51,799 nucleotides of DNA from Anaerolineae bacterium (GCA_027021705.1 JALUTT010000047.1:1-51799); one strand, 5' to 3'. Positions 9,814 through 33,325 are shown, counted from the stretch's first letter. Translations and numbers: made by a program. The notes: generated by a model from the sequence alone, not told the origin.

Positions 9814-9842
9814 TTGCCCTTCTCTCCCAGCGATGCTATAAT
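9814..9842 (+). promoter_or_regulatory. sigma70-type promoter for the type IV TA operon
   Basis: TTGCCC-17 bp-TATAAT with extended TG. Confidence 0.7.
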
Positions 9843-9894
9843 CAGCAATGAGTTGCGATCTCTCGGCCGGCCACGAAAGGGAGACGGTGAGACA

Positions 9895-10869: not shown

Positions 10870-13800
10870 TCAGCACAGCAGCGGCGAGGCGAACTTCCAG
10901 AATTCGTCCGCCACTTCCTCAAAGGTCTTCGCCTCGGCTTCCTGGCGGGCTGCTGCGACGATGTGATCGGGCAACCGGGGGGTGAGCTGGGCCAGCAACT
11001 GTTCTCCCCGTTTCTTGGTCAACTCCTCGCTGGCCGGATGTTGCAGGACGAAGGCGACGAGGGCCAGGGCCTGTTCGGGCTCGTCTTGCTCCAACAGCAG
11101 GTCGGCCATCCCCACCATAACCTCCAGAGCCAGGGGCAGGGCACCGATCTCTCTGGCCCCGTTCAGAGCCCGGCAGAAGTACTCCCTCGCTTCCCGATAC
11201 TCTCCCAGGGCCCGCGCAGCATTGGCCAGGTTGTCGAGGGAGATGGCCACTCCCAGCCGATCCCCCATCTCCCGGCGGATGATCAGGCTCTCGTGGTAGT
11301 ATCGCTTCGCCTCTTGGTACTTTCCCAAGTCGTAGGCCACCAGCCCTAGGTTGCCGAGGGAAAGGACGATGCCCACCCGGTCGTCGAGCCTGCGGAAAAC
11401 CGCGAGGCCCTCTTTGCACAGGTGTTCCGCCCGCTCGTATTCTCCCCGCGCCCGAGCGATGAGGCCCAGATTGGCAAGAGCGCTTGCCGCCCCCGGCAGA
11501 TGCCCGATGTCCTGGAAGATGGTCAAACCTTCCCGGCTGAACCGCCACGCCCGTTCATATTCCCCTCGAATTCGGGCGACAATGCCCAAATTGTTGAGCC
11601 CATAGGCCACGCCCTTCTCGAAGCCCACCTCCCTGTACATCGCCACGCTTTTCCGAAGGTGCTCCTCGGCTTCTTCGTATTCCCCCAGCGTGCCGGCAAT
11701 GACGCCCAGGGCATTCAAGCAGAAAGCGGCGTCCTTTTGAGCGGGATCGCCAAGGGGGCGCAATAGGGAAAGGCTCTCCAGCAGCGCTTCCCTGGCTTGC
11801 GCGTAGGCTCCGAGCCGGAAGAGGAACCATCCTCGCCGTGCCAACACCTTCCCCAGGACGAGCCTCCGCTTGGGGGAGTCCGCCTCTTCCGGGGCTGCTC
11901 GCCATTGATCCGCTGCATCCCCAAAGACCTCGCTGCCCTCTTGGAACCAGCCGCGCCAGTCGTAGAAGGTGAAAAGCCCCTCTGAAAAATCGGTGATCAT
12001 CTCGAGGTGCCCGTGGGCAATGGCCCACCTCCACCCCGCCCTGATGTTGTCTATCTCCTCGCCGACCTCCTCCAAGGCTGCCTTCCGCCCCGGCCCCGAA
12101 AAGGCTTCCTCCTTCCGGCGAAGGAAAGCCGCGTAATAGCGGCAATGCCGGTTCCGCACCGAGGCCATCTCCCCAGGGATTTCCCGGAGCTTCCCCTCCG
12201 TGTATTGGCGCAACAGTTTGTGTAGCTCGTAGCGCCCTGTCTCACGCCTGCGGAGGAGGGATTTGCTCTCCAGCGCCGAGAGCACGGCGGGAGAGGCCCC
12301 AACCACTTGCTCCGCCGCCTCCTGGCGGAAGCCACCCTGGAACACGGAAAGCCCTCTGGACACCCGTTGCTCCTCCTCCGTGAGCAGCCTCCAGGAATGC
12401 TCAAACACCACCCGCAGGCTACGGTGCCGCCGAGGGACGTCCTGCATCGAGGAGGTTAAGATCTCCAGGCCCCGTTCGAGCTCCCGGACGATCCTCGCGC
12501 CGGCGAGCCCCCCGACCCAGGCAGCCGCGATCTCAATCCCCAGGGGCATCCCTTCTACCAGTTGGCAGATGCGTATCACAGCGGTCTTTTCTCTCTCCAG
12601 AGAGAAGCCCGGACGCCTCCGCCGGGCGATGTGGACGAATAACCGCACCGCACTGTAGCGCTCAGGGTGCATCTCCCCTTCGTCCTCGGGCACTTTCAGC
12701 CCTCCCACCCGAAACAACCACTCCTGACGCAGGTTCAGGCTCTGCCGAGAGGTGACCAGGAGTTTCACTCTTGGGGCCGCCTGCAGGATTTCCCCCAGCA
12801 AGCCCGCGCCTCTGACGAGGTGCTCGAAACCGTCCAGCACCAGCAGCAGCTCTTTCCCCCTCAGGTAGTTCAAAAGCTGCTTCTCAGGGGCCTCCCGACC
12901 GTAGAAGGAGAACTCGAGGGCGTCGGCGATGGCCGGCACCAGGAGCGCCGCCGAGGGGACGGCCTCTAAGGGGACAAAACAGGCCCCGTGCAGGAAATGG
13001 TCCTTGTTCCGAGAAGCAGCCTGGAGGGCCAAGCGGGTTTTGCCAATCCCGCCGGGGCCGACCAAGGTCAGCAGGTGACAGTCGGGGTCGGCCAGGAGCC
13101 GACCGAGTTCTGCGAGCTCCTCTTCCCGGCCAACGAAAGGGGTCGGCTGTCGGGGAAGGGGACGAAACCGCGTGAACTCCATCGTGCGGATGCGCTCATA
13201 GAGAGCGGTGGTCTCCGGTGAGGGCATCACCCCCAACTCCTCGGCCAGGATGCGGCGACAGGTTTCGTACTGGGCCAGGGCAGCGGAGCGCTGCCCACTG
13301 CGGGCCAGAAGCAACATCAAGTATCGGTGGGCCTCCTCCCGCCAGGGCTCCAGGGCCAACTGGCGGGTGATGTACTCGATGGCTGCCGGGTACTCCAACC
13401 GGGCTGCATGATGAGCGGCCAGGGCTTGAAACACCTCGTAGGCCTGCCGATGCAGCCGCTCGCGCTGGAGCAACGCCCACTCCTCGAACACGGGAGCGTC
13501 GCGGACTTGGAAGCCCGCCAGGAAATCCCCCCGGTATAGTTCGGCGGCCTGACGCAGGCTCTCCCAGTCCGCCCTCCCAAAGGGGGGCTTCGGCTCGTCC
13601 CGGCCCGTCCACACCCGCTGCCAGGCTGCCCGAAAGGCTTCGACGTCCAGCCAGTAGGGTTGTTCCCGGTTGAAGGCGACCGAGTGTCGCGTGACGATCA
13701 GGTGGGGGCCGATCAGGTGGCGCAGGTTGTGCAGAACCTGACGCAGGTTGGTCAGCGCACTGGCCTCCGGCCAGTCGCCCCACAGCAGGCTCGCCAGGGC

Positions 13801-13941
13801 GGAGCGCAGGTGGGGCTGACCGGTGACGGCCAGGTAGCAAAGCAGGGCCTGAGCCTTGGCGGAGATGAAGCCGGTGATCGGCTCTCCGCGCCGCGCAACC
13901 TGCATTCCCCCCAAAAAGGACAGGGAAAGTTCATCGTCCAT
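10870..13941 (-). CDS. AfsR/SARP-type regulator: wHTH-BTAD + STAND (NB-ARC-like) ATPase + TPR
   Basis: LSFLGG...[10 protein letters not shown]...[19 protein letters not shown] (BTAD); Walker A GPGGIGKT; Walker [12 protein letters not shown]-terminal NNLG TPRs. Confidence 0.92.
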
Positions 13942-13954
13942 CGGGGACCTCTTG

Positions 13955-13988
13955 CCTTTACGATCTCTTTACGACGAGGTGCTATAGT
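13955..13988 (+). promoter_or_regulatory. Direct-repeat box and extended -10 for the small-gene/surface-protein operon
   Basis: CCTTTAC-gatc-TCTTTAC-10 bp-TATAGT (CTTTACGA x2, 11-bp period); inverted copy TCGTAAGG at 13992-13999. Confidence 0.7.
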
Positions 13989-14009
13989 TGGTCGTAAGGC
14001 CGCAATCCA

Positions 14010-14018
14010 AGTATAGCA
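14010..14018 (-). promoter_or_regulatory. Extended -10 for the divergent AfsR-like gene
   Basis: TGCTATACT on the minus strand about 70 bp upstream of ATG 13941. Confidence 0.55.
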
Positions 14019-14049
14019 CACCCTGTTGGAAGGCCGCAAGGGGGGAAAG

Positions 14050-14280
14050 ATGCACGTACCAGCCCGGCCATCACGCTACCGGGCTTACCTGCTGCGGTGT
14101 TGGGAGGAGAGCGAGCAAGGGACCGGGCGGGGAAAGGTCTGGCGGTTTAGTCTGGAGGATGCCTACACAAGCCAACGGCGGGGCTTCGCTAGCTTGGAAG
14201 AGATGATGGCCTTCCTGCGCAGCCAGTTGGAGGGGGAAGCCGATCCGCCACCCCGGCAGGTGAGCATCGAGGGCATCTGA
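14050..14280 (+). CDS. Small hypothetical protein (76 aa), homolog of 29644-29844
   Basis: RBS AGGGGG; YLLRCWEE...WRFSLEDAYTSQRRGFASLEEMMAFLR; first gene after a promoter. Confidence 0.75.
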   Translation: MHVPARPSRYRAYLLRCWEESEQGTGRGKVWRFSLEDAYTSQRRGFASLEEMMAFLRSQLEGEADPPPRQVSIEGI

Positions 14281-14309
14281 AAAGACAAACTCAGGAAAAG
14301 GAACGAACG

Positions 14310-15008
14310 ATGGAAGCTCAAACCAACAGCACCTCGGAATACTTGGCCGCTACCGCGCTGTGCGACTGTGACAACCCCTGGTTGCGCGGCCTAGCGGCAG
14401 AGATCACCCAGGGGGCGGAGACCCCCACCGAGAAGGCGATGCGCGTTTTCGAGTACGTGCGCGACCACGTCCGCTTCGGCCTGGCCTTCAGCCGCTCCAA
14501 AGCCTCGCAGACCCTGAAGCGGGGCTACGGTGAGTGCGGCACCAAGACCAACGCCCAGGTGGCCCTGCTGCGCGCCATCGGCATCCCGGCCCGCTTCCGC
14601 CGGGTGCGGGCCAAATCGGAGGTGCTCCACGGCCTTATCCTCGAGTTCGTCTACAAGCAGATACCGCCCACCGCTTCCCATTTTTGGGCCGAATGCTATC
14701 TCGATGGCCGCTGGGTCTCCTGCGAGGCCCTGCTCGACCGGCCCCTCTACGAGGGGATGCTGCGGGCCGGACTGCTCACCAAAGCGCAGATCCCGACGAT
14801 TGACTGGGACGGTCACAGCGACCTGGTGCTCCTCGGCCCCTGGATCACTGAGGACCTGGGACATCTGCCCGGCTACGACGAGGCCCTGGCCGCGCTCATC
14901 CGCAACAAGGAGGACATCCCGCCCCTCTGGTTTGAGCGGCTCATTGCGCCCTGGTTCTACCCGCTCAACCTGCGGCCCTCGGATCGGCTGCGTCGGCTGG
15001 CAAGGTAA
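14310..15008 (+). CDS. Transglutaminase-like (papain-fold) protein
   Basis: GYGECGTKT (Cys), LLRAIGIPAR, HFWAECYLDGRWVSCE (His; Glu in place of usual Asp); no signal peptide. Confidence 0.88.
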   Translation: MEAQTNSTSEYLAATALCDCDNPWLRGLAAEITQGAETPTEKAMRVFEYVRDHVRFGLAFSRSKASQTLKRGYGECGTKTNAQVALLRAIGIPARFRRVRAKSEVLHGLILEFVYKQIPPTASHFWAECYLDGRWVSCEALLDRPLYEGMLRAGLLTKAQIPTIDWDGHSDLVLLGPWITEDLGHLPGYDEALAALIRNKEDIPPLWFERLIAPWFYPLNLRPSDRLRRLAR

Positions 15009-15101
15009 AGACGGTGCGATCCAGGTGCGAGGCACCCGGCGCACCCACAGCACCGAAATCCCAATGACAGCACGCGACAGGATGTGTTTCGGAGGTGTGA
15101 T

Positions 15102-18100
15102 ATGAAAACCTCACTCTCTTGTCACCTTTTTCGCCTTTCTCTGGTGATGGCCCTTCTCCTCGGCCTGTTGCCGATGCCGGTGGAAGGATGGGGTTCCCGG
15201 CAGGCCCCCCAGGCCACCATCGTCGTCAACTCCGAGGGGGACCAAGCGGACCCCACGCCGGACGACGGCACCTGCGACATCTTCGACCCGCCCCAGGGCA
15301 TCTGCACCCTGCGGGCAGCCATCCAGACGGCCGACGGGAGCGGGGCGCCTGGCGCAGATACCATCACCTTTGCCGCCAACGTCTCCACCATCAAGCTCAC
15401 CGACGACCTGCCGTGGATCAGAAGCCCCGTCACCATCAACGGCCAGAAGCGGGTGGTGCTGGACGGAAATGACAGAGATAACAACTTCTGCTTCGTGTTT
15501 TCGGGGGTTAGCGGAGGCGCCACGGTCACCGGGATGATCATCAACAACTGCAAGTATGCGATCTGGCTGTTTGGCGGCGGTCCTTACACCATCCAGGGCA
15601 ACTATATCGGCACCGACCGCACCGGAACGGTGGCCAAGCCCAACAAGTACAGCATAGGGGTAGACGATGCGTCCCACGTCCTCATCGGTGGCACCACCGC
15701 CGACGAGCGCAACGTCATCTCCGGCAATATCTACGACGGCATCTCCATAGACTCCGGCAGCTACATCACCATCACCGGCAACTACATCGGCGTTGACGCC
15801 ACCGGCACCAAAGCCCTGGGAAACGGCGACGACGGGGTTGACGTCTCCGGGCTTTTCTCCTGGAAGACGACCACCAACGTCGCCATCGGCGGCAACACGG
15901 CGGGGGCCCGCAACGTCATCGCCGGCAACGGCGACGACGGCATCCTGGTCTCCGGTCAGTATGCGACGAGCATCACCATCCAGGGCAACTACATCGGCAC
16001 CGATAAGGACGGGCTCAAGGACCTCGGCAACGGCGGGGACGGCGTCCACCTGATGAGCGACTCCTCGCAGAACACCGTCGGCGGGGGGAGCATCACCGCC
16101 GGGCAGCCTTGCTCCGGGGCCTGCAACGTCATCTCTGGCAACGAAGGCCACGGGATTTACATCAGCAGCGATAACAACACTGTAGCAGGCAACTTTATCG
16201 GCACCGACGTCAACGGCACGGCGGCCATTCCCAACAGCGACGCGGGCGTATACACATCTTTGGCCTACACCACCACCATCCGCAGCAACCTCATCTCCGG
16301 CAACCACGGCAATGGCATCCGACTCTCCGGTGGCTACAATGTTGTCCGGGGCAACTTTATCGGCACCGACATCAACGGTACGGCCAGGCTGGGCAATGGC
16401 GGGGCCGGGGTATACAACGAGGGCGACTGGAGCGTGATCGGCGGCGACCCCGGCGGCAGCCTCCCGGCCACTTGTGCCGATCCCTGCAACCTCATCTCCG
16501 CCAACAGCAGCGTGGGCATCACGACCACCGCAGGAACCGGAGGGCACACCACCATCATCGGCAACTTTATCGGCGCCGACGTCAGTGGTGAGTTCCCCCT
16601 GGGCAACCAGAGCCACGGCATAGCGGCTTACGAGGAAGAGGATGCGGTGATCTCTCAGAACCTGATCTCGGCCAACGGAGGGCACGGAGTCTATCTTTCC
16701 AGTGGAGAGTACACCTTCGGCTATTCCAACACCCTCCAGGCCAACATCATCGGGATGACCGACGACGAGGACGAAAACGCCACCTATATGGGCAACCAGG
16801 GGTACGGTATCTTTGTGTACCGGAACAAGAACACCTTCATCGGCGGGGAGCAGGACGGACAGGGCAACACCATCGCCCTCAACGTCCGGAGGGGCGTGGC
16901 GATCTCTTCCACTCTATCCACCGGGAACCGCATCCTGCGCAATTCCATCTTCGACAATGCTCAGATGGGCATAGACCTGGGCGAGGACGGCGTGACCCCC
17001 AACGACGCCGGTGATGGCGACATCGGCCCCAACAACCTCCAGAACTACCCCGTCATCACCGACATCCAGGGCACCCAGGTCTCGGGGGTGCTGACCAGCA
17101 CGGCCAACACCACCTTCCGGCTGGAGTTCTTTGCCAATCCCCTTTGTAGCTTCAGCGGGCATGGCCAGGGCAAAATCTTCCTGGGCAGCCTGGACGTGAC
17201 CACCGACGCCCACGGGCGGGCGGACTTCCAGGGCAATCTGACCACCGCGCCTCCCAGCGGCCACGTGGTCGCCGCCACCGCCACCGACCCCGATGGCAAC
17301 ACCTCCGAGTTCTCGGCCTGCTACGGGGGGCTGGTGGTCAACTCCGTTGGGGACAAGGGAGACAAGACTCTCGGCGACGGCCTCTGCGATACCGGCGACA
17401 CCATCTCCAACGGCGATCCCGAGTGCACCCTGCGGGCGGCCATCGAGGAAGCCAACGCCCTCTCCGGCCCCAGCACCATCTCCTTCGACATCCCGGGATA
17501 CGGCACCGATATCCCCACCATCTGGTTGAACAGCCCTCTCCCTCAGGTGAATAACCGGGTCTCCATCAACGGCACCACCCAAAGCGGCGGCCTGGTGCAC
17601 CTGGAGGGTGCCTCGGCCGGGGCCAACGCCAACGGCCTGGAGCTCCGGGGAGGGAAGAGCCGGGTCGGCGGGCTGGTCTTCTGCGGCTTCGATGGGCACG
17701 GCATCCTGCTGGCCGGCGGGGACGGCCACGTCGTCGCCGGCAACCTCATCGGCGTTGACGAGAACAACAACGCCTGCTCCATCGGTGGCAACGGCATCCG
17801 CATAGAGGACACTTCGGATAACAACGTCATCGGTGGAACCACAGAAGTGGAGCGCAATGTCATCGCCAACAGCGCCTTCAGCGGCATCTACGTGATGGCC
17901 GGTTCCAGCGGCAACTCCATCCGGGGCAACTACATCGGCACCGACCTCAGCGGCACGACCGCCCAGGGCAACGCTCTGGCCGGCGTGCACATCGAAGGAG
18001 ACGGGAACTTTGTGGGCGGCCTGGTGGATTCCTGGGGGACGTGTGCCGGAGCCTGTAACCTGATTGCGGGCAACAAGTACGGGGTGCTCCTGAGCGGCAG

Positions 18101-19964: not shown

Positions 19965-20009
19965 GGTGGCGGTAGGCGCGACGCACTTTGAAACAACTGG
20001 AGGTGAAAG

Positions 20010-22553: not shown

Positions 22554-22589
22554 GTAGGGGTGGGGCTTGCACCCGCCTTCCTGCCGTTA

Positions 22590-22620
22590 CCCTCCCGCAG
22601 GCTCCGAGCCTGCGGGAGGG
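22590..22620. repeat. Short derivative of element A (hairpin)
   Basis: ccctcccgcagg-ctccgag-cctgcgggaggg. Confidence 0.8.
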
Positions 22621-22647
22621 ACAGACAAAGAAAGGGAGAGAGACACA

Positions 22648-23685
22648 ATGGTTAAGAAAGTCCTGTTTCTGACGACATTGCTCGCAATTCTCGCAAGCGG
22701 GTGCAAACCCGGAGCATCTGCGCCTGTCACCGAGACCGCGTCTGCCGTCCCCGCCAACACCCCCATCCCGACGGACACCCCTTTCCCCCCCACGCCCACA
22801 CCCACCCCGACGGAGACGCCCCTCCCCCCAACACCCACCCCCACCCCGACGGAAACGCCTGTCCCTCCCACGCCAACGCCGGAACTGCCGCGGGAATCCG
22901 GCCTGGAGGCTAACCCTCAGCGGGTGGAGTTCCAGGCCCAGGACGGCACGCAGTTGGTGGGATATTATTACCCCTCCCGTTTCGCCGATGCTCACATCAT
23001 CGTCCTGGCGCACTGGGCCGGCGGCAATCAGCGGGACTGGGTAGAGATCGCCATGTGGCTCCAGAACCGCCGGGACGAGGTAACCGAGTACCCGCAGCCG
23101 ACCGATGACACCTCCCTCGGCCCCTGGCTCGATCCCTCCTGGTTCCCTCCGATGCCCGCCGACGTCTCCTTTGCCGTCTTCACCTTCGACTTCCGGGGGT
23201 TTGGCGAGAGTGCCTCGGGAGCGTGGGAGGATATGCTACAGGACGCCCAGGCTGCCTTCGAGACGGCGGCGGAGATGGAGGGGATCGACCCGCAGCGGAT
23301 GGCGGGGATCGGAGCCAGCATCGGTGCCGACGGCGCGCCCGGCGGCTGTTTGCTCTACAATCAGACGCAGGGCGGCGGCTGCCTGGGGGCAATGGCCCTT
23401 TCGCCGGGCAACTACTTGGTGGACTTTGCCTCGGTGGTGGAGCAACTGGAGGCCCTCGACCCGCAGGCCGAGGTCTGGTGCCTGGCGGATAAAGAGGACG
23501 AGGCCGCCTACACGACCTGCAAACCCATCAGTGGAGACCTGTACCAGTTCTACGTTTTCCAGAACGCCGGGCATGGGATGATGCTCATTCGCCCTAAAGT
23601 GGAACCGCAGCCGCTGGTGCTGATCCAGCAGTTCCTGGGAGAACTGTTTGGGATTCCCTCCCTGAAAGGCTCAAAAACTCGGTGA
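22648..23685 (+). CDS. Lipoprotein with Pro/Thr linker and alpha/beta-hydrolase domain
   Basis: Lipobox LASGC; PTPTPTETP repeats; FDFRGFGES; GASIG nucleophile elbow; AGHG His. Confidence 0.85.
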   Translation: MVKKVLFLTTLLAILASGCKPGASAPVTETASAVPANTPIPTDTPFPPTPTPTPTETPLPPTPTPTPTETPVPPTPTPELPRESGLEANPQRVEFQAQDGTQLVGYYYPSRFADAHIIVLAHWAGGNQRDWVEIAMWLQNRRDEVTEYPQPTDDTSLGPWLDPSWFPPMPADVSFAVFTFDFRGFGESASGAWEDMLQDAQAAFETAAEMEGIDPQRMAGIGASIGADGAPGGCLLYNQTQGGGCLGAMALSPGNYLVDFASVVEQLEALDPQAEVWCLADKEDEAAYTTCKPISGDLYQFYVFQNAGHGMMLIRPKVEPQPLVLIQQFLGELFGIPSLKGSKTR

Positions 23686-23698
23686 AATTCCGTTGCCA

Positions 23699-23733
23699 CC
23701 CTCCCGCAGGCTCCCTGGTACTCAGCCTGCGGG
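23699..23733. repeat. Short degenerate derivative of element A
   Basis: ccctcccgcaggct...agcctgcggga. Confidence 0.7.
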
Positions 23734-23764
23734 AAAGATCCATGGCAGGCGAAAGGAGGCTGAA

Positions 23765-26530
23765 ATGCGCTTGCAAAGTTGGTTATCGTTTGTGGTGTTG
23801 ATCGCCCTGTTGCTGGTCGGCAGGGCTTCTCCAGCGGCCTCCTGGGCTGCTCATGGATCGCTCCCCCTGGCCGACTGGGGCGACGGATCCCTTCTCTTCG
23901 TCGAGAACGTGGGTCAGTTCGACCCCCGCGCCCACTTCCAGGTGCGCGGGGGTGATGCCACTCTCTGGCTGGCCGAAGATGGGCTGTGGATAACCCTCAC
24001 CCCCTCCCCCCTTGCCCCCCTCCCCCTCTCCCAAGATTGGGAGAGGGGGAGGGGAACGGCCGTCAGGCCGGGGGGAGGGGGTGAGGGCGTCGTCCTTCAC
24101 CTCTCTTTCCCCGGTGCCGCTCCCCACCCCCGCCTGATGCCCTTCGGTCGGCAAGAGATGGTGGTTAACTACTACCGGGGGAACGACCCGGCGCAATGGC
24201 ACACCCACGTGCCCGTGTGGGGCGGCGTGCGGTACGTGGACCTCTACCCCGGCGTGGACCTGGAGATCACCGGCGTGGGCGGCTACCTCGCCTGGCGGCT
24301 GGTCGCGCAACACGCAACAGGCAGCCCGGAGGATGTGCGCCTGCGGGTGGAGGGGGCAGAGGATGTCACGGTGGAGGGGAACGTCCTGCGCCTGACCACG
24401 GCAGTGGGCACTTTCACCCTGCCGCTCTTGCAGGGAGAAGGCCCCGCCGTGCCCCAGGTGCGCCCGGCAGAGGGAGGGGGGTTCCTGGTGACCGCCCCCT
24501 TTGCTCCGAGAAGCGCCGGACCCACGGCAGTGGAGGCCGCCAGCGCGCTACTCCTGGGCACTTACCTGGGCGGCAGCGGCGGGGACCGGGTGGAAGGGAT
24601 CGCGGCCGACGGCACCGGGGCGGTCTACGTCACCGGCTGGACCTTCTCCACCAACTTCCCCACCGAGGGGCCGGGGGCGACCTCCTCGCTGAGCGGCAAC
24701 TGCGACGCCTTCATCACCAAACTGGAGACCTCGCCGACCGGCACTTTCCGCCCTGCCTACAGCACCTACCTGGGCGGCTCCTACACCAGCGACGATTACA
24801 AGGATTCCATCACCGAGAGCGGGATGGACATTGCCGTGGAGAACGGCGCGGCCTACGTGGCCGGGTACACCTGGTCGAACGACTTCCCCACCACCGCCGG
24901 GGCCTACGACACCACCTTCAACGGGCCGACCGTCTCGCCCGATGCCACCCCTGAGCGGCCCGGCTGGGACGGATTCGTCGTCAAACTGGATTCCTCCGGC
25001 AACCTGGCCTACTCCACCTACCTGGGCGGCTCCGGCTACGACGTTCCCGGCGGCGGGCGCGGCGGCGGCGACGATGAAGCACGGGGCATTGCCGTGAGAG
25101 ATGGCATCCTCTACGTCACCGGCTACACCAAGTCCTCAGACTTCCCCACCACCGCCGGGGCCTACGACCGTACCTACGCCAACGTGGACGTGGGCCTCAA
25201 CGACGACGTCTTCGTGGTCAAGCTGAACCCGGCCGGTAACGGGAACGCCGACCTCCTCTACGGCACCTTCGTCGGCGGCGGGATGCCGGAGGTGGGCAAC
25301 GATCTCGCCGTGGACGGTTCCGGCGTCGTCTACGTCACCGGTTGGACCGGCGACATCTTCGGCCCTGCCATCACCAACGACTTTCCCACCACCGGGGGGG
25401 CATACGACCCCCAGTCTCCGGCGGACGACGTAGAGGCTTTCTTCTTCCGGCTGAACCCGGCCGGCAACGGCGATGCGGACCTCCTCTACTCGACCTTCCT
25501 GGGCGGGAACGGCGGCTCCGATTACGGCCACGCCGTCGCAGTGGACGGGGCGGGGAACGTCTATCTCGTCGGGAGCACGACCTCGTCCGATTTCCCCGCC
25601 ACCCCCGGCGCCTTCGACACCACCTGTGGCACCGACGGCCGGTGCAACTCCACCGCCGGCTGGGGAGCCTACGACGACGTGTTCGTCGCCAAACTGAACC
25701 CGGCCGGAGGCGGCACATCCGACCTGCTCTACGCCACCTTCCTGGGTGGGAGCCATACTGACGGCTGGATCGTGGACTGGGCCGACATCGCGATAGATGG
25801 AAGTGGGGATGTGTACATCACCGGCTTGACCTCTTCCAGCGACTTTCCCCTCACGCCGGATGCCTATGACGACACGTACAGTTACACCGACGCTTTTGTG
25901 ACCCGCCTCAGCCTCCAGGGGAAGGGACAAGATGACCTGGTCTACAGCACTTTTCTAGGCGGGAGCGACGTAGACAAGGGACTGGGAGTGGCCCTCGAAT
26001 CCGAAGGCGTCATCTGGATCGCCGGTTACACCAAGTCATCAGACTTCCCCACCACCGATGACGCCTTCGACAAGCTTTACAACGGCGGCGGCGACGGCTT
26101 TGTAGTCAAGATGATGGCCCCGCCGCCCACGCCCGACCTCTCCCCCTCGACCAAGGAGGTGAACCCCACCGTCGCATCTGCCGGGGAGGTGGTCACCTTC
26201 ACCGCGCGTCTGGTCAACAGTGGGATGATCAGCGCCACCGTCGCCTTCACCGACACCCTGCCCGCATCGCTGCTCCTGCAGGGCACCCCCACCGCCAGCG
26301 CCGGCCCCACCCCGACGGTGAACGGGCAAACCATCACCTGGACAGGCAGTGTGGCAGCGAACGACCGGGTCACCATCACCTACGCCACCCTGCTCACCTC
26401 GACCGTGACGCTCACGCCCACCGTCTTCAACCAGGCCGAGATCAACGACGGGCACGGCAACGTGTACGTGCGCCGGGCCTACGTGAATGGGCACCGCCTC
26501 TTCCTGGCCATCGTGCTCAAGAACCGGTGA
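23765..26530 (+). CDS. Secreted SBBP beta-propeller repeat protein with C-terminal DUF11-like domain; FLAIV variant tail
   Basis: Signal peptide; FVENVGQFD, NYYRGNDPAQW; YSTYLGGS/YVTGxTxSxDFP repeats; ends RLFLAIVLKNR. Confidence 0.88.
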   Translation: MRLQSWLSFVVLIALLLVGRASPAASWAAHGSLPLADWGDGSLLFVENVGQFDPRAHFQVRGGDATLWLAEDGLWITLTPSPLAPLPLSQDWERGRGTAVRPGGGGEGVVLHLSFPGAAPHPRLMPFGRQEMVVNYYRGNDPAQWHTHVPVWGGVRYVDLYPGVDLEITGVGGYLAWRLVAQHATGSPEDVRLRVEGAEDVTVEGNVLRLTTAVGTFTLPLLQGEGPAVPQVRPAEGGGFLVTAPFAPRSAGPTAVEAASALLLGTYLGGSGGDRVEGIAADGTGAVYVTGWTFSTNFPTEGPGATSSLSGNCDAFITKLETSPTGTFRPAYSTYLGGSYTSDDYKDSITESGMDIAVENGAAYVAGYTWSNDFPTTAGAYDTTFNGPTVSPDATPERPGWDGFVVKLDSSGNLAYSTYLGGSGYDVPGGGRGGGDDEARGIAVRDGILYVTGYTKSSDFPTTAGAYDRTYANVDVGLNDDVFVVKLNPAGNGNADLLYGTFVGGGMPEVGNDLAVDGSGVVYVTGWTGDIFGPAITNDFPTTGGAYDPQSPADDVEAFFFRLNPAGNGDADLLYSTFLGGNGGSDYGHAVAVDGAGNVYLVGSTTSSDFPATPGAFDTTCGTDGRCNSTAGWGAYDDVFVAKLNPAGGGTSDLLYATFLGGSHTDGWIVDWADIAIDGSGDVYITGLTSSSDFPLTPDAYDDTYSYTDAFVTRLSLQGKGQDDLVYSTFLGGSDVDKGLGVALESEGVIWIAGYTKSSDFPTTDDAFDKLYNGGGDGFVVKMMAPPPTPDLSPSTKEVNPTVASAGEVVTFTARLVNSGMISATVAFTDTLPASLLLQGTPTASAGPTPTVNGQTITWTGSVAANDRVTITYATLLTSTVTLTPTVFNQAEINDGHGNVYVRRAYVNGHRLFLAIVLKNR
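23994..24087. repeat. REP-like nested palindrome lying in-frame inside the SBBP gene
   Basis: ccctcaccccctcccccc/ggggggagggggtgaggg outer arms; cccctccccctctcccaa/ttgggagagggggagggg inner arms; cggcc-gtca-ggccg. Confidence 0.85.
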
Positions 26531-26621
26531 AGGTTGAGAGGGAGCGAGACCTCTCGACGATAACCGCCGGGCTCGGCTGAGAGCGGGCGTTGCCTGCATC
26601 GTCCAGTACGTCGGCAGAAGG

Positions 26622-29600
26622 TCACTCCTTGACCACCAAAGGCAGGTAGAGTTGGGGTTGCAAGTTGGGAATCGGCCAACTCCCCTCCTTCAAGTTATCC
26701 CCCGAAGCCACCAGCGCGAAGGGCTGCGGCCCCTGCGGCACGCTGTAGCCGTGGACGATGACGGTGTAGGTGCCGTAGAGCGCGTTGGGGATGATGATGC
26801 CCTCCACATTGTTGCAGGCATCCCACTTTCCACTCCGCAGGCACTGCCCCGTGGTGTAAAGCCCCTGGTTGCCGTAGTAATGGGTGCCGTCGGGAGCGAT
26901 CACCTCCAGGTCCAGGTCGTTGACCAGAGCCTTGGCCGCCGACGGTTGGCCCGGATAATCCGTCCAGGCCAAGGTGATGCGGAAAGGACCACCGGTGAGG
27001 GTCGTGGTCGGCGTAGAGGTGGGTGTCGGCGTCGGCGTAGCGTCTGGCGTGGTCACGTAGAGGGCCGTGTCGTCCACCCAGGCCCGACTGCTCAGGGAGC
27101 CATCCGTTTGGACGAAGAAGCCGAAAAGCACCGTCTGACCGACCACGGAGGCCAGTTCGGTAGCGCTGAGGCTGTAGACCTCTCTGGTCCAGTCCTGATT
27201 CCCTATCTGACCAAAGTCGGCGCAGCGCTGCACGTAAACCGTGGTCCCTGTCTGATCCCAGATGCTGTAGCAGAAATAGTCTACAGACGTCCAGATCTCG
27301 TCGGTGAGCATGCGATACCAAAAGTCAATGGTTACAGCGGTGGCGTCGGCAGGGATGCCCACCTGCTGCCAGAACTGGTCATTGGCATTGTCAGCATTGC
27401 CCAGGTGGGCCGACCAAGAGCCCGTGTGGGTGACGACATCGGTCAGGTATGGCCAGCCGTAGGTCTGCCAGGGGGACCAGCTTCCCGTCTCAAAGCCAGA
27501 GTTCTGGAGCACCTGGGAGGTCCCCGCCGGACGGAAGCCCGCCTCCCCGACGAAGGGGGGGGCTTGGTCGAGCGACCGGACCGCCGGCTGCGCTGATCCC
27601 ATAGCGCGGGAAGGACCGGAGGTCGCTACCGAGAGCGGGGCCTGCCTGCCGGTCGTCTGGGTCGTGCCGACTGTGAGGGTGTACACCGCTGCACCGCCCG
27701 TGCTCAACCCCGTCGTGTTGTCCTTCAACCAGACCTTGCGGGGCGAGGGTGGGTTCAGGCTCTCCACCAGGTCCACCCGGCCCCAGCCGGCGACGTTGTT
27801 GGGCCGCTGGGAGGGGATCTCCTGGGTAGAACCGGTGCCGTACTGGCCGGGGGTCATATCGGCGGTGCCGTTGACGAGGACCGCCTTCATCAGCGCGGCG
27901 CTGGGATTGGTCACCCCTTTAATGCGGGTCAGCCACTCCCGCACGATGGCCGCCGCCCCGGCGGTCAGCGGCGTTGCCATGCTGGTGCCGCCCATGTAGA
28001 GGTAGTGCTCGTTGTAGACACCCCACCCCGTCCCCGCCTGGGGATCGTGGGAACGGGCGGAGATGATGAAGGTCCCTGGAGCGACCAGATCGGGCTTGAT
28101 CCGTCCATCGTCGGTAGGCCCCCGGCTGGAGAAGGCGGCCATCCCATCGGAGTCGTCGGCTATCTGGTCGCTGAAGATCGGATCTACCGGGAAGTCACTG
28201 GGCCACCCATCCCCCCAGCGGGTGGTGAGGGTGGACCGTAAGTTCTCCGACGCTCCCACCGTGACCACGTTCTTGGCCGTTCCCGGGCTGCCGATAGCGT
28301 CCAGGTCCACCACCCCGTCCGCATCGGCATCCACGCCGCTGTTGCCGGCCGCGTAGAGGATGAGCATATCCTTGTACTGCCACATCATCGTGTCGGCCTG
28401 CTGAGCCTGAGAGTCGTAGCCACCGTATTCAGGGTTTTGGGAAGTCCCTCCTGTTGGTCCTCCCCAGGAGTTGGTGTGCACCCGCGCCCCTTTGTCGTAG
28501 GCCAGCTTGAAGAGGTAGTTGACCAGGTCAGACGGGACACACTCCAGCCCGTTGCCCGGGGCGTTGTCAATGGATTGGAAGACCAGTTGAGCTTCAGGGG
28601 CAACACCAGCGAAGGAGCCCCCATAATTGTGCTGGGATGGATCGCTTCCCGAGAGACGACCATTGCCCAAGACACTCCCCGCCACGTGGGTGCCGTGACC
28701 ATCGAAGTCGTTCCAGGTGGTGCGCCCCCCTTGGAAGAGGGCGCAGATGGCTTGTCCCTCGACGATGCGCCCCTCGAAGTCGTCGCTCATCGCCGAACCG
28801 GTCGTCCCCACGTCCAACCCCGTATCGGCCACCGCCACGATCTGACCCGCGCCGTAGAGGCTCAGGCTGCTGCGCACGTCGTTGGCCCGCATAATCTGGC
28901 CGCCGCCCACGTCGTTGTAGAGCTCCGGCTCGAAGTAGGGCTCCACCCAGAGCACGCCGTCCAGGGCGGCCAGGGCCTCCAGGCGGTCGGGGGCGATGCG
29001 CACCCGGAGGTAGCCGGCGACGGCGTTGGCCCCTCGCCCCAGGACCTTGCCCCCAACCCCCTCGATCGCCCCTTCCAGGGCATCCAGGGCCACATCGGGC
29101 AGCGTCTGCACCGTCACGGTGATCACCTCATCCCCTGCCTCCTGCCCCTTGCCCCTTGCAACCTGCAACTTGCCCCCTGCCCCTTGCAACTTGCTCCCTG
29201 CCCCTTGCAACTTGCCCCCTACCCCTTGCAACTTGCTCCCTGCCCCTTGCAACTCCTCCGCCAGCCGATAGGCAGGGTGATAGAGCCCTACCCAACGGAC
29301 AAAGGGGAGAGAACGCACCTGCTCCGCCACCGCCGGCGTCATCCGGGCGAGGAAGGCGTGGTCAGGGATGTATCCGTAGAGACGGGCCCCCACTCTCTCG
29401 ACCTGCCTCTTCCATACATCGCGCACCGGGCCGGTGAACTGGACCAGGTAGGTAGCCGGACGGTCGGCCTGCACGCTCAGCCGCTGTCCGGCAGGCAAGA
29501 AGGGTTCCCCCTTCAGCGGGTCAAAGGTCGCATAGCGCAGACGGATCTGGGGTGGCGTCGGCGATGAAGCCGCCCGATTCGGCAGGGGAAGCAACACCAG

Positions 29601-29660
29601 CCCCACGATCAGAGCACCCAGGACGAGAAACACTACCAGAGGGCTACGCCTGTGTCTCAT
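26622..29660 (-). CDS. Secreted S8 (subtilisin, KP-43-like) serine peptidase; YLPLV tail
   Basis: Catalytic ADTG, HGTHVAG, GTSMATP; AAGN oxyanion motif; VNDLDL...NNVE C-domain; ends QLYLPLVVKE. Confidence 0.93.
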   Translation of the reverse strand: MRHRRSPLVVFLVLGALIVGLVLLPLPNRAASSPTPPQIRLRYATFDPLKGEPFLPAGQRLSVQADRPATYLVQFTGPVRDVWKRQVERVGARLYGYIPDHAFLARMTPAVAEQVRSLPFVRWVGLYHPAYRLAEELQGAGSKLQGVGGKLQGAGSKLQGAGGKLQVARGKGQEAGDEVITVTVQTLPDVALDALEGAIEGVGGKVLGRGANAVAGYLRVRIAPDRLEALAALDGVLWVEPYFEPELYNDVGGGQIMRANDVRSSLSLYGAGQIVAVADTGLDVGTTGSAMSDDFEGRIVEGQAICALFQGGRTTWNDFDGHGTHVAGSVLGNGRLSGSDPSQHNYGGSFAGVAPEAQLVFQSIDNAPGNGLECVPSDLVNYLFKLAYDKGARVHTNSWGGPTGGTSQNPEYGGYDSQAQQADTMMWQYKDMLILYAAGNSGVDADADGVVDLDAIGSPGTAKNVVTVGASENLRSTLTTRWGDGWPSDFPVDPIFSDQIADDSDGMAAFSSRGPTDDGRIKPDLVAPGTFIISARSHDPQAGTGWGVYNEHYLYMGGTSMATPLTAGAAAIVREWLTRIKGVTNPSAALMKAVLVNGTADMTPGQYGTGSTQEIPSQRPNNVAGWGRVDLVESLNPPSPRKVWLKDNTTGLSTGGAAVYTLTVGTTQTTGRQAPLSVATSGPSRAMGSAQPAVRSLDQAPPFVGEAGFRPAGTSQVLQNSGFETGSWSPWQTYGWPYLTDVVTHTGSWSAHLGNADNANDQFWQQVGIPADATAVTIDFWYRMLTDEIWTSVDYFCYSIWDQTGTTVYVQRCADFGQIGNQDWTREVYSLSATELASVVGQTVLFGFFVQTDGSLSSRAWVDDTALYVTTPDATPTPTPTSTPTTTLTGGPFRITLAWTDYPGQPSAAKALVNDLDLEVIAPDGTHYYGNQGLYTTGQCLRSGKWDACNNVEGIIIPNALYGTYTVIVHGYSVPQGPQPFALVASGDNLKEGSWPIPNLQPQLYLPLVVKE
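29134..29252. repeat. 17 tandem heptamers (CYTGCCC/CYTGCAA/CTTGCTC) in-frame in the S8 prodomain
   Basis: Encodes (LQGAG[SG]K)n; same unit as the 255-282 intergenic repeat. Confidence 0.9.
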
Positions 29661-29844
29661 TGTTCTCTCCCTCCTCTTGCTCAACTTCCTTAATCACAAA
29701 CTGGCGCAGCAGCCGGACCAGTTCGTTCAGGTCTACGAAAGTGATCTCTTGGCCGCTGGTGACGTGGCGCAAGCGGCCTCGCGGGTCCGAACTTCGCGCC
29801 GGGTCGTGGAAGATCGTTAGGATGAACGTTTCGTGGCCTTGCAT
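29644..29844 (-). CDS. Small hypothetical protein (66 aa), homolog of 14050-14280
   Basis: RBS GAGAGGGGG; TFILTIFHD...RGRLRHVTSGQEITFVDLNELVRLLR; overlaps the S8 start by 17 bp. Confidence 0.7.
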   Translation of the reverse strand: MQGHETFILTIFHDPARSSDPRGRLRHVTSGQEITFVDLNELVRLLRQFVIKEVEQEEGENNETQA

Positions 29845-29890
29845 AATCCCCCCTCTCGGAAGACTGGCCCCACCACACCTTCTGCTCCCC

Positions 29891-29924
29891 AGCATACACC
29901 GGTGGTGTGACAAGGGGATGACAA
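29891..29924 (-). promoter_or_regulatory. Direct-repeat (pho-box-like) site and -10 for the small gene-S8 operon
   Basis: TTGTCAT-cccc-TTGTCAC-10 bp-TATGCT. Confidence 0.7.
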
Positions 29925-29959
29925 CGCACAGCCTGCAACTCCCCCTGGGGTGGCGGCGT

Positions 29960-32900
29960 TCAGCGCCGGCGGAGACGCCGATACAGGGCGGTCAATTCCT
30001 CGCAGGGGGGAAGGTCCAGATCGCGCCGCAGCCGCTCCCGCAGGGATTCGTAAGCCCGCAGGGCTGCCGACAGATCCCCCATCGCCCCATACGCCCGCAT
30101 CAGCAGCAGGGTCGCCTCCTCGCTCCAGGGGTCCTCCTCCAGCGTCCGCCGGGCCACCTCCACCACCTCCTGCCAGCGACCGGCCTCCTCGTAGTGCCGG
30201 CCCAACGCCAGCAGCCCCTCCCGATACCGTTCCCGCAGCCGTTCTCGCCGGAAGAGGACCCACTCCTCATAGGGCAGCTCGGGCAGGTACTCCCCGCCGT
30301 AGAGGGCGAGGGCCGCTTCCAGGGCGGCGATGGCCTCTTCCCCCGACCGCGTCCGCGCCCGGCTCAGCGCCTTCTCAAAGGCGATGCCGTCTACCCAGGA
30401 CCCTTCGGGCAGGCGGAGGGCGTAGGTCTCGTCCCCTGTCGCCACATAGCGGGAGGGGAAGCCCGCCGGCAGCTCCGGCTCCAGCGTGCGACGCAGGTCG
30501 GCGATGGCCCGGCGGAGGTTCTGAGCCGCCTTGTCCGGTGGGCTGTCGGGCCAGAGCCATTCCATCAACCGTTCTTTGGGCACCGGCCGGGGGGCCTGCT
30601 CTAACAGGAGGAGGAAGACGTCACGGGCGCTGCGCCGAGGCCAGCGGACGATCTCCCGGTCGCCCCGCCAGAGGCGGAAGCCTCCCAGCGTCTGAACCCG
30701 CAGGGGCTCCGGCGGCAGGGACAGCAACCGCCCCAGGGCCTCTTCGACGGCCTGACGAACGCCGGCGTCGGGATCGTTGCGGCGGGCGGCCAGAGGGGTG
30801 AGGGCGCTCACCTCTCCCAGCCGGCCCAGCAGGTGGGCAGCACGAGCACGGACGTGGGGGGCGGGATCGCGTAAGAGGGGAAGAATCGTGTCGAAGGCCA
30901 GGCGGCCCAGCTGGCCCAGGAGGCAGTCCGCGCACTCCGGCACCAATCCTCGGCGCAAAGCGTGGACCATCAAGGGGATGGTCCAGGCCGCCTCCTCGAG
31001 GAAGAAGTAGAGGCAGCGAGGGGGATCACCGTGCTCGTAATGGTGGGCCAAGGCCATCGCCTGTCCCAGGTGCTCCGCCAGCGCCTCGTCATCCCTCCGG
31101 TGATGGGCCAGCACGGCCTGGTAGAAGTGGAGCTGGGCTTGTTCGTAACGGGCTCCGGCGGAGACGATGGCCCGCTCGGCCTCCCTCCACATCGCCTCAG
31201 CTTCAGCGTCCTCCTCCCGCGCCAGATGGATGGCCCCCATCTCAATCAACCAAGCGCTGCGCTCGAAGGCGTTGTCCATGCGTTCGTAGTGATTCAGCGC
31301 TTCTTCACCCAGGCGCAGGGCTTCATCCAGTTGCCCCCGCCGTCGGGCCAACAGGGCCAGGAAAGCAAAGGTAGGAGCAAGCTCGTACTTGATGTTCAGC
31401 CTCTGCTGGATGGTCAGCGCCTCCCGGTGACACCGCTGAGCCTCCTCCAGCCTCCCCCGGGCGCGATGGATGATCCCCAGGATGTTGAGTCCGTGGCCGT
31501 AGAGAACCTGGCGGTCCAGGAGGCGGGCCAACTCCAGGGCACGGCGCACCAGGGCCTCCGCCCGGTCCAGTTGACCGAGCAGGTAGTGATGGTAGGCTGC
31601 GTTTTCGAGGACGGCGATCTGGTGATGGCGGTTGCCGTAGGCTTCCATCAGGTCTAGAGCCGCGTGCCAGGTCTCCAGGGCGGCGTTGAAATCCCCCCGG
31701 TTGGAAAGCGCCCCCCCTTTGAGCACCAGGAGGGAAGCGCGTCTCAGGGGGTTGTGAGCCCTCGCTGCCCGTTCCAACGCCTGGTCCAGGAGGTCAAAAA
31801 CTTCGGGGATAGCTCCCTGCGTGATGTACCGGGCTTGGGCGATCTTGCCCAGGGCGGCAGCGGCGTCATCGTCGGCCGGTGCGTAGGTCAGCGCCCGCCG
31901 GGCCAAGGTCTCGGCAGCGGCGAAATCGCCATGTTTCGCCCCGGCAATCGCCGCCAAGCCGTAGTACAAGGAGTAGAGGCCCGCTGTGTCCTCCCGATCC
32001 CGGAGAAGGGGCTCGGCTTGCCGGTAGAGCTGCTCGGCCACGCCGTCCTCACCGCGGGCGAAGGCCAGTTCGGCCCGTATCAGGAGGAGCCAAGGATGGG
32101 CCGTTGCAAAGGATGGGGGAAACCGTTCTAGCCAGCCCTCCAGCCTCTGGTAACGGCTGGTGGCAAACAGCCGCTTGGCCAAGGGGCGGATCAGCTCGGC
32201 GGCGGCTTCGTAGTCTTCGGCTTCCAGCAGGTGAACAACGGCGCGTTCGTCATCGCCTCGCTCCAGGAGCCAGGCAGCCGCCCGGCGGTGGAGTTGCCGG
32301 ACGACGGTGCGCCCCTCCTCCTCCAGGAGGCGGCGCCGGAGGAACTCTCGGAAGAGGGTGTGGTAGCGATAGGCGGTGCGACCGGCGTCCACAGGGAAGG
32401 TGAAGAGGCCGGAACGTTCCAAGCGGGCCAGGAGAGCCGCCGCATCGTCCCGGCCCAACAGCGCATCGCAGAGGGCCGGCTCCAACCGCTCCAGGATGGC
32501 CGTGCGGCGCAGGAAGGTGCGCAGCGTCTCCGGCTGACCCTCCAGGACGACGCGGGCCAGGTAGTCGTAGAGGTGGCGGGCATCCCCGGTGGGGGAGAGG
32601 CGCAGCGCCTGAGCAGCGCTCTCGACGCCGTGGCGGGTGACGAACTGCCGGGCCAGCTCCAGCGCCGCCGCCCAGCCCTCGGTCCGCGTCGCCACCTCGC
32701 GCAGGACGGAAAGGGGGAGCTCCAGTTGATGGACCTCACGGAAGAGGGCCACCACCTCGTCGGTCGTGAAACAGAGGTCGGCCGCGGTCACCTCGACCAC
32801 CTGCCCTTGAACGCGCAGACGGGGGATAGCAGAGAGCGGAGGCTCCCGACGGGCGGCCAAGGCCAGGTGCAGGTAGGGCGATGCCCGAACCAGTAAGCGG

Positions 32901-33325
32901 TCCAGGAACTGCAACGACTCCGCCCCCGCCTCGATGGTGTGGACATCGTCCAGGACCAAGAGGAGCGGGGTGTCCAACGAGATCAGAGCGTCGAGGAGAG
33001 GAAGAAGGAGGACCTTTCCGTCGGAGGAAGAGCCGATCGGCAGGGACTCCCGCCCCTCGGCGAGGGCCGGGATAGAGGGGGCCAAGGCGTCGTAGAGGGA
33101 GCGCAAGAAGTGAGGGAGGTCGGCATCCCGCTCATCCAAAGAGAGCCGAACGCTCTGAACCCCACCCCCTTCCACGACCTGAGCTCTCCACTGGTCCAAC
33201 AGAACCGTCTTGCCATAGCCGGCCGGGGCGACGGCCAGAACCAGGCGGCAGCTCAACCCCCGCCCTAAGAGGTCCAAGAGGCGGGGTCTGGGAAGGATGG
33301 TGGCGGTGGGCTGGCGACGGGCCAT
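29960..33325 (-). CDS. MalT-like STAND ATPase + TPR + HEAT pair + C-terminal wHTH/BTAD regulator
   Basis: LPRPRL, Walker A APAGYGKT, LVLDDVH, TEGWAAAL, YRYHTLFREFL; TPRs; LRVQTLGGF...LMEWLWPD...EDPWSEEA. Confidence 0.9.
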   Translation of the reverse strand: MARRQPTATILPRPRLLDLLGRGLSCRLVLAVAPAGYGKTVLLDQWRAQVVEGGGVQSVRLSLDERDADLPHFLRSLYDALAPSIPALAEGRESLPIGSSSDGKVLLLPLLDALISLDTPLLLVLDDVHTIEAGAESLQFLDRLLVRASPYLHLALAARREPPLSAIPRLRVQGQVVEVTAADLCFTTDEVVALFREVHQLELPLSVLREVATRTEGWAAALELARQFVTRHGVESAAQALRLSPTGDARHLYDYLARVVLEGQPETLRTFLRRTAILERLEPALCDALLGRDDAAALLARLERSGLFTFPVDAGRTAYRYHTLFREFLRRRLLEEEGRTVVRQLHRRAAAWLLERGDDERAVVHLLEAEDYEAAAELIRPLAKRLFATSRYQRLEGWLERFPPSFATAHPWLLLIRAELAFARGEDGVAEQLYRQAEPLLRDREDTAGLYSLYYGLAAIAGAKHGDFAAAETLARRALTYAPADDDAAAALGKIAQARYITQGAIPEVFDLLDQALERAARAHNPLRRASLLVLKGGALSNRGDFNAALETWHAALDLMEAYGNRHHQIAVLENAAYHHYLLGQLDRAEALVRRALELARLLDRQVLYGHGLNILGIIHRARGRLEEAQRCHREALTIQQRLNIKYELAPTFAFLALLARRRGQLDEALRLGEEALNHYERMDNAFERSAWLIEMGAIHLAREEDAEAEAMWREAERAIVSAGARYEQAQLHFYQAVLAHHRRDDEALAEHLGQAMALAHHYEHGDPPRCLYFFLEEAAWTIPLMVHALRRGLVPECADCLLGQLGRLAFDTILPLLRDPAPHVRARAAHLLGRLGEVSALTPLAARRNDPDAGVRQAVEEALGRLLSLPPEPLRVQTLGGFRLWRGDREIVRWPRRSARDVFLLLLEQAPRPVPKERLMEWLWPDSPPDKAAQNLRRAIADLRRTLEPELPAGFPSRYVATGDETYALRLPEGSWVDGIAFEKALSRARTRSGEEAIAALEAALALYGGEYLPELPYEEWVLFRRERLRERYREGLLALGRHYEEAGRWQEVVEVARRTLEEDPWSEEATLLLMRAYGAMGDLSAALRAYESLRERLRRDLDLPPCEELTALYRRLRRR

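Follow-up and report, generated by a model that had tools for sequence, protein, structure and literature searches.

Do very small genes that lie next to large regulatory genes form a functional unit with them, and if so, what do the small proteins do? This question is raised by a stretch of 51,799 bp of DNA from an Anaerolineae bacterium (GCA_027021705.1, JALUTT010000047.1:1-51799), called here the window, which is contig C47 of a 5.19-Mb genome in 183 contigs and has a G+C content of 62–71%. The first regulator of the window (reg1, 10870-13941, minus strand, 1023 aa) shows the domain order of AfsR, with a putative N-terminal winged helix-turn-helix (wHTH) and a BTAD domain followed by a putative NB-ARC-type ATPase and TPRs, and it is divergent, with 108 bp between them, from a gene encoding a protein of 76 aa (small1, 14050-14280, plus strand). 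The second (reg2, 29960-33325, minus strand) is a MalT-like, putative STAND ATPase with TPR and HEAT repeats and then a C-terminal putative wHTH and a BTAD domain, so that it can be described as a permuted SARP regulator, and it is followed on the same strand by a gene encoding 66 aa (small2, 29644-29844).

A preliminary description of this DNA had proposed that one and the same layout occurs twice in the window, as a repeated module of regulator, small gene and operon. The regulators, small genes and operon genes that it named are all present where it placed them, the gene content is indeed repeated and the operons of modules 1 and 2 converge at 26530/26622. The layout, however, is not: the small gene is divergent from its regulator in module 1 but in tandem with it in module 2, and the domain orders of the two regulators are permuted. 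We consider it probable that each pair constitutes a two-gene regulatory cassette, in which a SARP-type activator switches on the adjacent gene of a small protein of beta-beta-beta-alpha type together with the cargo genes behind it. In its operon the small gene comes first, and the genes that follow it vary among genomes.

The family of small proteins

Comparison of the small1 gene across 70 orthologues revealed differences of 0.42/0.38/0.61 at codon positions 1/2/3, and the invariant Leu, Arg and Gly residues were encoded by four to six synonymous codons. Because the third codon position varies most and the invariant residues use many synonymous codons, selection on small1 acts at the protein level. 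Judged by these substitution patterns and by the large family described below, the small open reading frames (ORFs) are real, conserved protein-coding genes, as the preliminary description had supposed.

The relationship between the two small proteins of the window was not evident from direct comparison, since BLASTP gave no alignment between them. The homologues of small1 (n = 58) share the invariant core W..WRFSL..GF (alignment A1) and belong to a WRFSLED subtype, while small2 belongs to a WRG..HV.SG subtype in which both Trp residues are replaced in its own sequence. A word-based search with small2 retrieved merely two near-identical relatives, and alignment of A1 with the single small2 sequence by hhalign gave a probability of 6%. 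The genome has 67,536 stop-to-stop frames, and when all of them were searched with the small1-family profile, small2 ranked seventh, and intermediates between both proteins, of the type F.VR.W...WRG...HV.SG....F..L..L..FI, were recovered. One profile iteration over these frames yielded exactly seven members, separated from the remaining frames by an E-value gap from 2.5e-22 to 0.82. In addition, hhalign of the two subtype profiles (A1 and A5) gave a probability of 97.3% (E 1.8e-11, 62 columns), and a single natural protein, P0061, contains both subtypes in tandem. According to these profile comparisons, through which alone the kinship is visible, small1 and small2 are members of one superfamily.

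The family members have 60–90 aa and, when clustered at 50% identity, amount to 9,372 clusters at E ≤ 0.001 and 596 at E ≤ 1e-10. Named relatives are all 'hypothetical protein' entries of Chloroflexota, with the exception of three loci of Acidobacteriota/Fraserbacteria and one titled 'uncultured bacterium' (L050). An abundance of such proteins in cyanobacteria and actinobacteria, which had been considered, found no support in these results. No Pfam or NCBIfam model matches the small proteins, and none of 25 family representatives had a Pfam match on the small domain. Likewise, sequence profiles gave nothing below E 0.04 against the PDB, and Foldseek gave nothing against it at E ≤ 0.001, the top match being YaiA (2kvt, E 0.41). 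Literature searches, with subscription journals outside their coverage, did not find a description of either the small-protein family or the Chloroflexota SARP cassettes. To this extent the earlier statement that no description was known holds for the small-protein family, which has no Pfam, NCBIfam or PDB relative and no paper found in these searches.

AlphaFold2 models of small1 and small2 consist of three strands and then a C-terminal helix, with a core pLDDT of about 90, and in small1 above 90. The strands of the small2 model are at residues 7-12, 22-27 and 33-36 and its helix is at 39-60. In both models the tails outside the core are disordered and often acidic. Both proteins are thus predicted by modelling to share a beta-beta-beta-alpha fold.

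Some relatives carry more than one copy of the domain or are fused to other domains. P0071 (987 aa) contains 12 copies of the small domain, P0063 has two, as does P0061 with its mixture of subtypes, and in P0156 the small domain is fused to a SnoaL-like cyclase. P0307, in which a BTAD end runs into the small domain, was rejected as evidence of a fusion because it comes from a single truncated contig of 1.5 kb and the join crosses the usual start of the small gene.

Genomic neighbourhood of the small genes

The genome to which the window belongs contains 11 genes with the full wHTH+BTAD module, and five of its seven small genes are located 100–360 bp from a SARP gene. Two of these pairs are divergent (WRFSLED subtype), and in the other three, which are of the WRG subtype, the small gene immediately follows the SARP gene on its strand. 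The two remaining small genes, on contigs C55 and C145, are found one at a contig start and one 520 bp from a contig end, and their regulators may be located on another contig, for instance C88. Two contig ends by cassette parts (G000:C55:47555-48074 and G000:C88:1-400) contain short tandem repeats that are the probable cause of the break in the assembly.

For other species, 76 loci were gathered with the small1-family profile A1. A divergent SARP gene was directly upstream in 47 of them, with a median gap of about 160 bp, and a convergent one was present in two. A broad profile detected the family in 34 of 151 genomes of the phylum, and the full SARP module was within 1.5 kb of the best match in 20 of the 29 other genomes. 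When five genomes were inspected, 16 of 34 family genes had one of 53 BTAD genes no more than about 1 kb away, against a background in which BTAD genes plus flanks cover ~1% of the DNA (tables cross-read by hand); one of the 16 overlaps the 3' end of the regulator on the other strand. Paralogous copies of the small gene number 7–18 per genome. As read from these genome sequences, the pairing of small genes with SARP genes is recurrent in Chloroflexota and far above chance, so that the enrichment beside BTAD regulators foreseen in the preliminary description was found with the family profile in the own genome, in 49 of the 76 loci and in 20 of the 29 genomes.

The regulators adjacent to small genes are not all of the large type seen in the window. 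At least seven of them are complete frames of 299–400 aa that hold the SARP module only, with no room for NOD and TPR parts. Because of these short SARPs, what stays constant beside the small gene is the SARP module rather than an NLR-like sensor, and the latter had to be abandoned as a fixed part of the module.

One further arrangement was observed in the f16 family (L097-L099, L102, L106-L109, L112), where the small gene is present in 11 of 11 searched genomes and is convergent with a regulator that ends in a SARP module.

Direct repeats and promoter architecture

Upstream of small1 there are two CTTTACGA direct repeats (13956-13974, plus strand, starting at 13956 and 13967) with a spacing of 11 bp, which are the predicted SARP operator of its promoter. 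An extended −10 element, TGcTATAGT (13980-13988, plus strand), follows 8 bp past the second repeat, and no −35 hexamer is present at 17 bp. A second extended −10, TGcTATACT (14018-14010, minus strand), probably serves reg1, and the leader transcribed from it would cross the repeats. Both facing elements are spanned by an inverted repeat (13979-13991/14007-14019). Upstream of small2, two TTGTCA repeats (29924-29919 and 29913-29908, minus strand), again with a spacing of 11 bp, are followed after 11 nt by the −10 hexamer TATGCT (29896-29891). If these boxes are written as the heptamer TGTCACA, their distance to the −10 becomes 9 nt, and the register equals that of module 1. Locus L070 carries TTGTCA/CTGTCA three times, in the register of module 2, ahead of TAAACT. 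A scan with the sigma-70 consensus found no full promoter at either small gene, as would be expected of activator-dependent promoters.

The repeats were also examined in the 47 divergent loci, over a stretch of 200 nt ahead of each small gene. An exact 6-mer direct repeat at spacing 11 was present in 29 of them, against a mean of 1.6 in shuffled sequences, while every other spacing from 6 to 30 occurred in 0–6 loci. Their boxes are mostly T(T/C)ACG(A), TAACG, TGACG or GTCAC and are found in two to four copies. A stringent ACG-type pair is present in 15 loci, of which eight have TAnnnT exactly 9 nt after the G, while each other distance was found in three at most. Minus-strand TGnTAnnnT was identified in 23 of the 47 intergenic regions, compared with 8.3 in shuffles. 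In the own genome, six of the seven small-gene copies have such repeats, every one with a different box sequence. The claim that both small genes sit behind direct repeats with a period of 11 bp was therefore sustained for the window (13956/13967 and 29924/29913) and extended to most of the divergent loci.

In PMC10936776, SARP targets are described as direct repeats 11 or 22 bp apart whose 3' repeat is 8 bp from the −10. Both promoters of the window fit this geometry, and on these sequence grounds the repeats in both are predicted to be SARP operators.

A different operator layout was observed at a SARP-STAND gene without a small gene (G000:C100:26258-26564). There, three direct copies of CACGAAT (spacings 11 and 8) and two inverted ones precede a gene encoding a protein of 1339 aa with a YLP-box tail, and the nearest −10-like hexamer is ~100 nt further on.

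Relation to AfsR–AfsS

The preliminary description knew of no account of this system. The system is nevertheless not without precedent, since the design is closely analogous to AfsR–afsS. In Streptomyces coelicolor, according to PMC10936776, the large SARP-NOD-TPR regulator AfsR adjoins the small gene afsS, whose promoter has a poor −35 overlapped by a pair of 11-bp direct repeats, the 3' one being 8 bp from the −10. A recent preprint (bioRxiv 10.64898/2026.09.02.748808) adds that AfsR and afsS are co-conserved and that AfsS is highly variable, its orthologues being recognised by internal repeats. The window resembles AfsR–AfsS in having a large SARP regulator with putative NOD and with TPR parts, an adjacent small gene, the same repeat geometry and co-conservation.

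Several features nevertheless separate the two systems. The cassettes are found in another phylum, and the window regulators score far below the cut-off of the AfsR model. In contrast to AfsS as that preprint describes it, the small proteins are predicted to be a single conserved folded domain, and by inspection no internal repeat is present in the A1 or A5 consensus or in the models. Moreover, the Chloroflexota small gene heads a cargo operon, and many paralogous cassettes occur per genome. By analogy, the cassette is a variant of the AfsR–AfsS design with a new and very large family of small proteins, multiplied within genomes.

Proposed mechanism and function of the small protein

In the mechanism that we propose, the adjacent SARP would bind its own boxes as a dimer, replace the −35 contact and recruit RNA polymerase. 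Binding would switch on the small gene and the cargo, which would be made together; in the window, this cargo would be giant secreted proteins and an S8 protease with YLP-box tails. Where a STAND ATPase and TPR part is present, as in both window copies, it would gate activation in response to some signal. In the divergent layout the extended −10 promoter of the regulator would face the small-gene promoter, and as the leader of the regulator would cross the operator, occupancy of the latter should lower regulator transcription, which would amount to autoregulation.

As for the small protein itself, we tentatively favour a role as feedback factor, whose target would be either the SARP domain or the complex of SARP and RNA polymerase. 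This role is preferred because the SARP module is the sole feature common to all neighbours of small genes, and also because the small gene keeps the SARP module, but not the cargo, as its constant companion, each paralogue being at its own regulator. It is possible, though doubtful, that each paralogue is a dedicated cofactor that binds the SARP domain of its neighbour, or the RNA polymerase complex of the latter, and sets the gain or memory of the promoter. Complex prediction with the SARP domain (A3), the TPR domain (A4) and small1 (A1) gave a score of 0.44, and a control in which the TPR chain was replaced gave 0.48.

Among the other explanations, the one that fares best is that the small protein is an output of the AfsS kind, activated by the SARP and acting on other regulators or on RNA polymerase at other promoters. 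The gene logic would be that of AfsR–afsS, a small regulatory gene behind a 22-bp repeat and co-conserved with afsR (PMC10936776; bioRxiv 10.64898/2026.09.02.748808), and some small genes do lack an adjacent regulator. However, local paired action fits better with 7–18 paralogues per genome, each at its own regulator and with its own box, and the small gene is predicted to be co-transcribed with local cargo nearly always. An action at other promoters seems to us rather unlikely.

It is less probable still that the small protein assists the cargo proteins, acting as a chaperone or as a helper in their secretion or maturation, and that its link with the regulator is passive. Against this, the cargo is unrelated among 57 loci while the SARP neighbour and the operator stay constant, and a tailed gene follows in just seven of 55 loci. 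Some features do point to the cargo: the small gene is always the first of the cargo operon, those of the window overlap the next gene or are 30 nt from it, YLP-tailed genes are downstream of five of the seven own-genome copies, and P0156 is fused to an enzyme of SnoaL-like type.

A ligand for the TPR domain of the STAND regulator, after the manner of protein-sensing bacterial NLRs or of the RRNPP peptide receptors, was also considered, as both window regulators have TPR sensor domains and the STAND/NLR analogy is drawn for AfsR in bioRxiv 10.64898/2026.09.02.748808. This explanation is weakened because the short SARPs mentioned above, which hold the SARP module alone, adjoin small genes too. 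Unlike the peptides of RRNPP signalling, the small proteins lack, to judge from A1 and A5 by eye, any hydrophobic segment at the N-terminus and are predicted to be folded domains that are conserved over their full length. We regard a TPR ligand as very improbable. Finally, that the small ORFs are chance frames or leader peptides in a region of which the DNA or RNA alone matters, as their shortness and their location within 5' regions might suggest, is hardly conceivable in view of the codon pattern, the 9,372 clusters, the confident fold models and the tandem and 12-copy forms.

Several observations weigh against the proposed pairing of SARP activator and small protein. By the filter used, 27 of the 76 loci had no SARP gene, although nine of these have less than 1.5 kb of upstream sequence. 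Among the 18 SARP-less loci with at least 1.5 kb, L065 has a BTAD-ATPase-TPR gene that the filter missed, L061 has an HTH_3-AAA_16 gene 1.4 kb away, and the remaining ones have unrelated neighbours. Similarly, nine of the 29 genomes had no SARP within 1.5 kb of the best match. Because of these loci and genomes, the small gene can evidently stand without an adjacent regulator. In addition, the loci are kin, and 11 of the 20 SARP-bearing ones share one convergent layout, so that their independence is overstated. In the f16 genomes, the convergent layout places the small gene behind no adjacent operator. In the own genome, six of the 11 SARP genes have no small gene. Because of these genes, among them the one on C100 with boxes before a tailed gene, the small protein is not needed at every SARP promoter. 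The wider fold search provided no functional lead either: the best Z was 4.6 (YaiA), and COMM, dsRBD and MBD domains gave Z 3.5–4.0, values no higher than noise.

Work on SARP regulators has dealt almost exclusively with actinomycetes, where they are switches of antibiotic genes. In Chloroflexota they occur in numerous self-contained cassettes, each made up of a regulator, a predicted operator and a small protein and placed before operons of surface or secreted proteins, and a very large unannotated family of small proteins gains a precise genomic address. The cassettes supply material for testing, as one genome contains defined operators each with its own box sequence, and a folded, conserved analogue of the AfsS-like proteins may be easier to study than those of Streptomyces. 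They would also be the first handle on the regulation of YLP-box proteins. Should the small proteins prove to be dedicated cofactors, a general two-component design, 'SARP plus small partner', would emerge, of which AfsR–AfsS is the sole studied, non-homologous example, and a function would be assigned to more than 9,000 clusters of proteins.

Regulators

Analysis of reg1 with Pfam gave 99.1 bits for BTAD (PF03704, cut-off 22.1) and 117.9 bits for TPR_12. Before the BTAD domain no Pfam match at E ≤ 0.01 to the OmpR-type winged helix was obtained; the N-terminal 100 residues are conserved across 41 orthologues (alignment A3). A Walker A motif, GPGGIGKT, is present at about residue 299, and the ATPase scores were 32.1 bits for AAA_16 (cut-off 32.6) and 21.6 bits for NB-ARC (cut-off 23.5). 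With the NCBIfam model of AfsR (NF053617, equivalog), residues 2-582 were aligned at 127.5 bits, far under the cut-off of 1430.

In reg2 the BTAD domain (PF03704) spans residues 1075-1215 and scores 83.7 bits (cut-off 22.1), while Trans_reg_C, with 23.9 bits, stays under its cut-off of 26.2. The AfsR model gave 47.4 bits with an alignment starting at residue 969, also under 1430. AAA_16 reached 27.9 bits, and the N-terminal part has a Walker A motif (APAGYGKT), with LLLVLDD as Walker B. ATPase motifs are thus present in both regulators, whose AAA_16 and NB-ARC scores are just below the Pfam cut-offs. Like MalT/LAL-type STAND regulators, reg2 aligns with the NCBIfam MalT model (NF003420) across the ATPase and TPR parts (residues 97-858, model positions 7-763 of 903), at 269.9 bits. 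This is under the cut-off of 537, and unlike in MalT the DNA-binding end is a C-terminal wHTH and BTAD domain in place of the LuxR helix-turn-helix; no GerE/LuxR match was found there in the Pfam and NCBIfam scan. SARP-LAL regulators that bind heptameric direct repeats are reportedly known in Streptomyces. By their domain matches, reg1 and reg2 are AfsR-like and MalT-like in architecture and, by the NCBIfam cut-offs, not orthologues of these proteins.

A PADLOC scan for anti-phage defence systems matched the regulators by a generic TPR model only and left the small proteins unmatched. The frame of reg2 is open upstream to 33613 (33613-33326, minus strand, 96 codons), and this Ser/Pro-rich stretch of low complexity is probably not translated.

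Cargo genes and their C-terminal tails

The cargo of module 1 is a five-gene operon (14310-26530, plus strand) with intergenic gaps of 7–75 nt, in which promoter-like and terminator-like sites were not above the shuffled expectation. It comprises a transglutaminase-like gene (14310-15008), a CSLREA/beta-helix gene (15084-19964), a beta-helix/choice-of-anchor gene (20010-22553), a lipoprotein-like gene (22567-23685) and an SBBP/DUF11 gene (23693-26530). The cargo of module 2 is an S8 subtilase (26622-29660, minus strand; Peptidase_S8, 148.7 bits), whose start is most likely the ATG at 29660, preceded by AGGAGG, which results in a 17-nt overlap with small2.

Among 57 loci, a Pfam scan of the first downstream gene identified adhesin-like or repeat surface proteins in 19, solute-binding proteins in eight, ThiJ-like proteins in five and assorted enzymes or other proteins in 10, with no Pfam match in the remaining 15. 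Because the type of this gene varies so much, the cassette is, as far as these annotations allow us to judge, a portable switch whose cargo changes between genomes.

Three of the five cargo genes of module 1 encode proteins ending in ..IYLPLVLRNR, ..IYIPLTLRNYGP and ..LFLAIVLKNR, and the S8 protease ends in ..LYLPLVVKE; the transglutaminase-like and lipoprotein-like genes have no YLP-box-like tail. With the model NF053834 (ultrashort_CTERM, cut-off 10 bits), four of six window tails passed, at 11.6, 13.3, 15.1 and 15.3 bits, that of the S8 protease being the one with 13.3; the model did not detect the divergent tails ..IYIPLTLRNYGP and ..LFLAIVLKNR. Two of the six passed NF050076 (cut-off 15 bits). 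By these matches the tail is the putative sorting motif already catalogued in NCBIfam as 'YLP-box' and is not new.

The pattern (V/I)YLP(L/V)V.(R/K) was found at the end of 75 of 8,861 own-genome frames of at least 200 aa, against 11 in control windows, and YLP-tailed genes are downstream of five of the seven small genes. In other species, the downstream gene was tailed in seven of 55 loci, and the tail occurred in 10 of 155 downstream frames versus eight of 433 other frames. The proposed association of the cassettes with tailed surface or secreted proteins thus holds for the own genome, in which such cargo is enriched, whereas at the other loci the cargo is not in every case a surface proteome.

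Neighbouring genes

Further large secreted proteins with YLP-box tails are encoded downstream of reg1 on the same (minus) strand, namely a beta-helix/PKD protein (285-3254) and two BNR/PD40 paralogues (4543-7128 and 7095-9725). On NF050076, the tail of the first scored 18.8 bits and that of 7095-9725 scored 15.3 bits. Finally, a gene located between reg1 and these tailed genes (10035-10793, plus strand) encodes an AbiEii-type nucleotidyltransferase toxin domain (Pfam, 55.5 bits) with weak PADLOC AbiEii matches, and the short frame upstream of it (9808-10200) could be its antitoxin.

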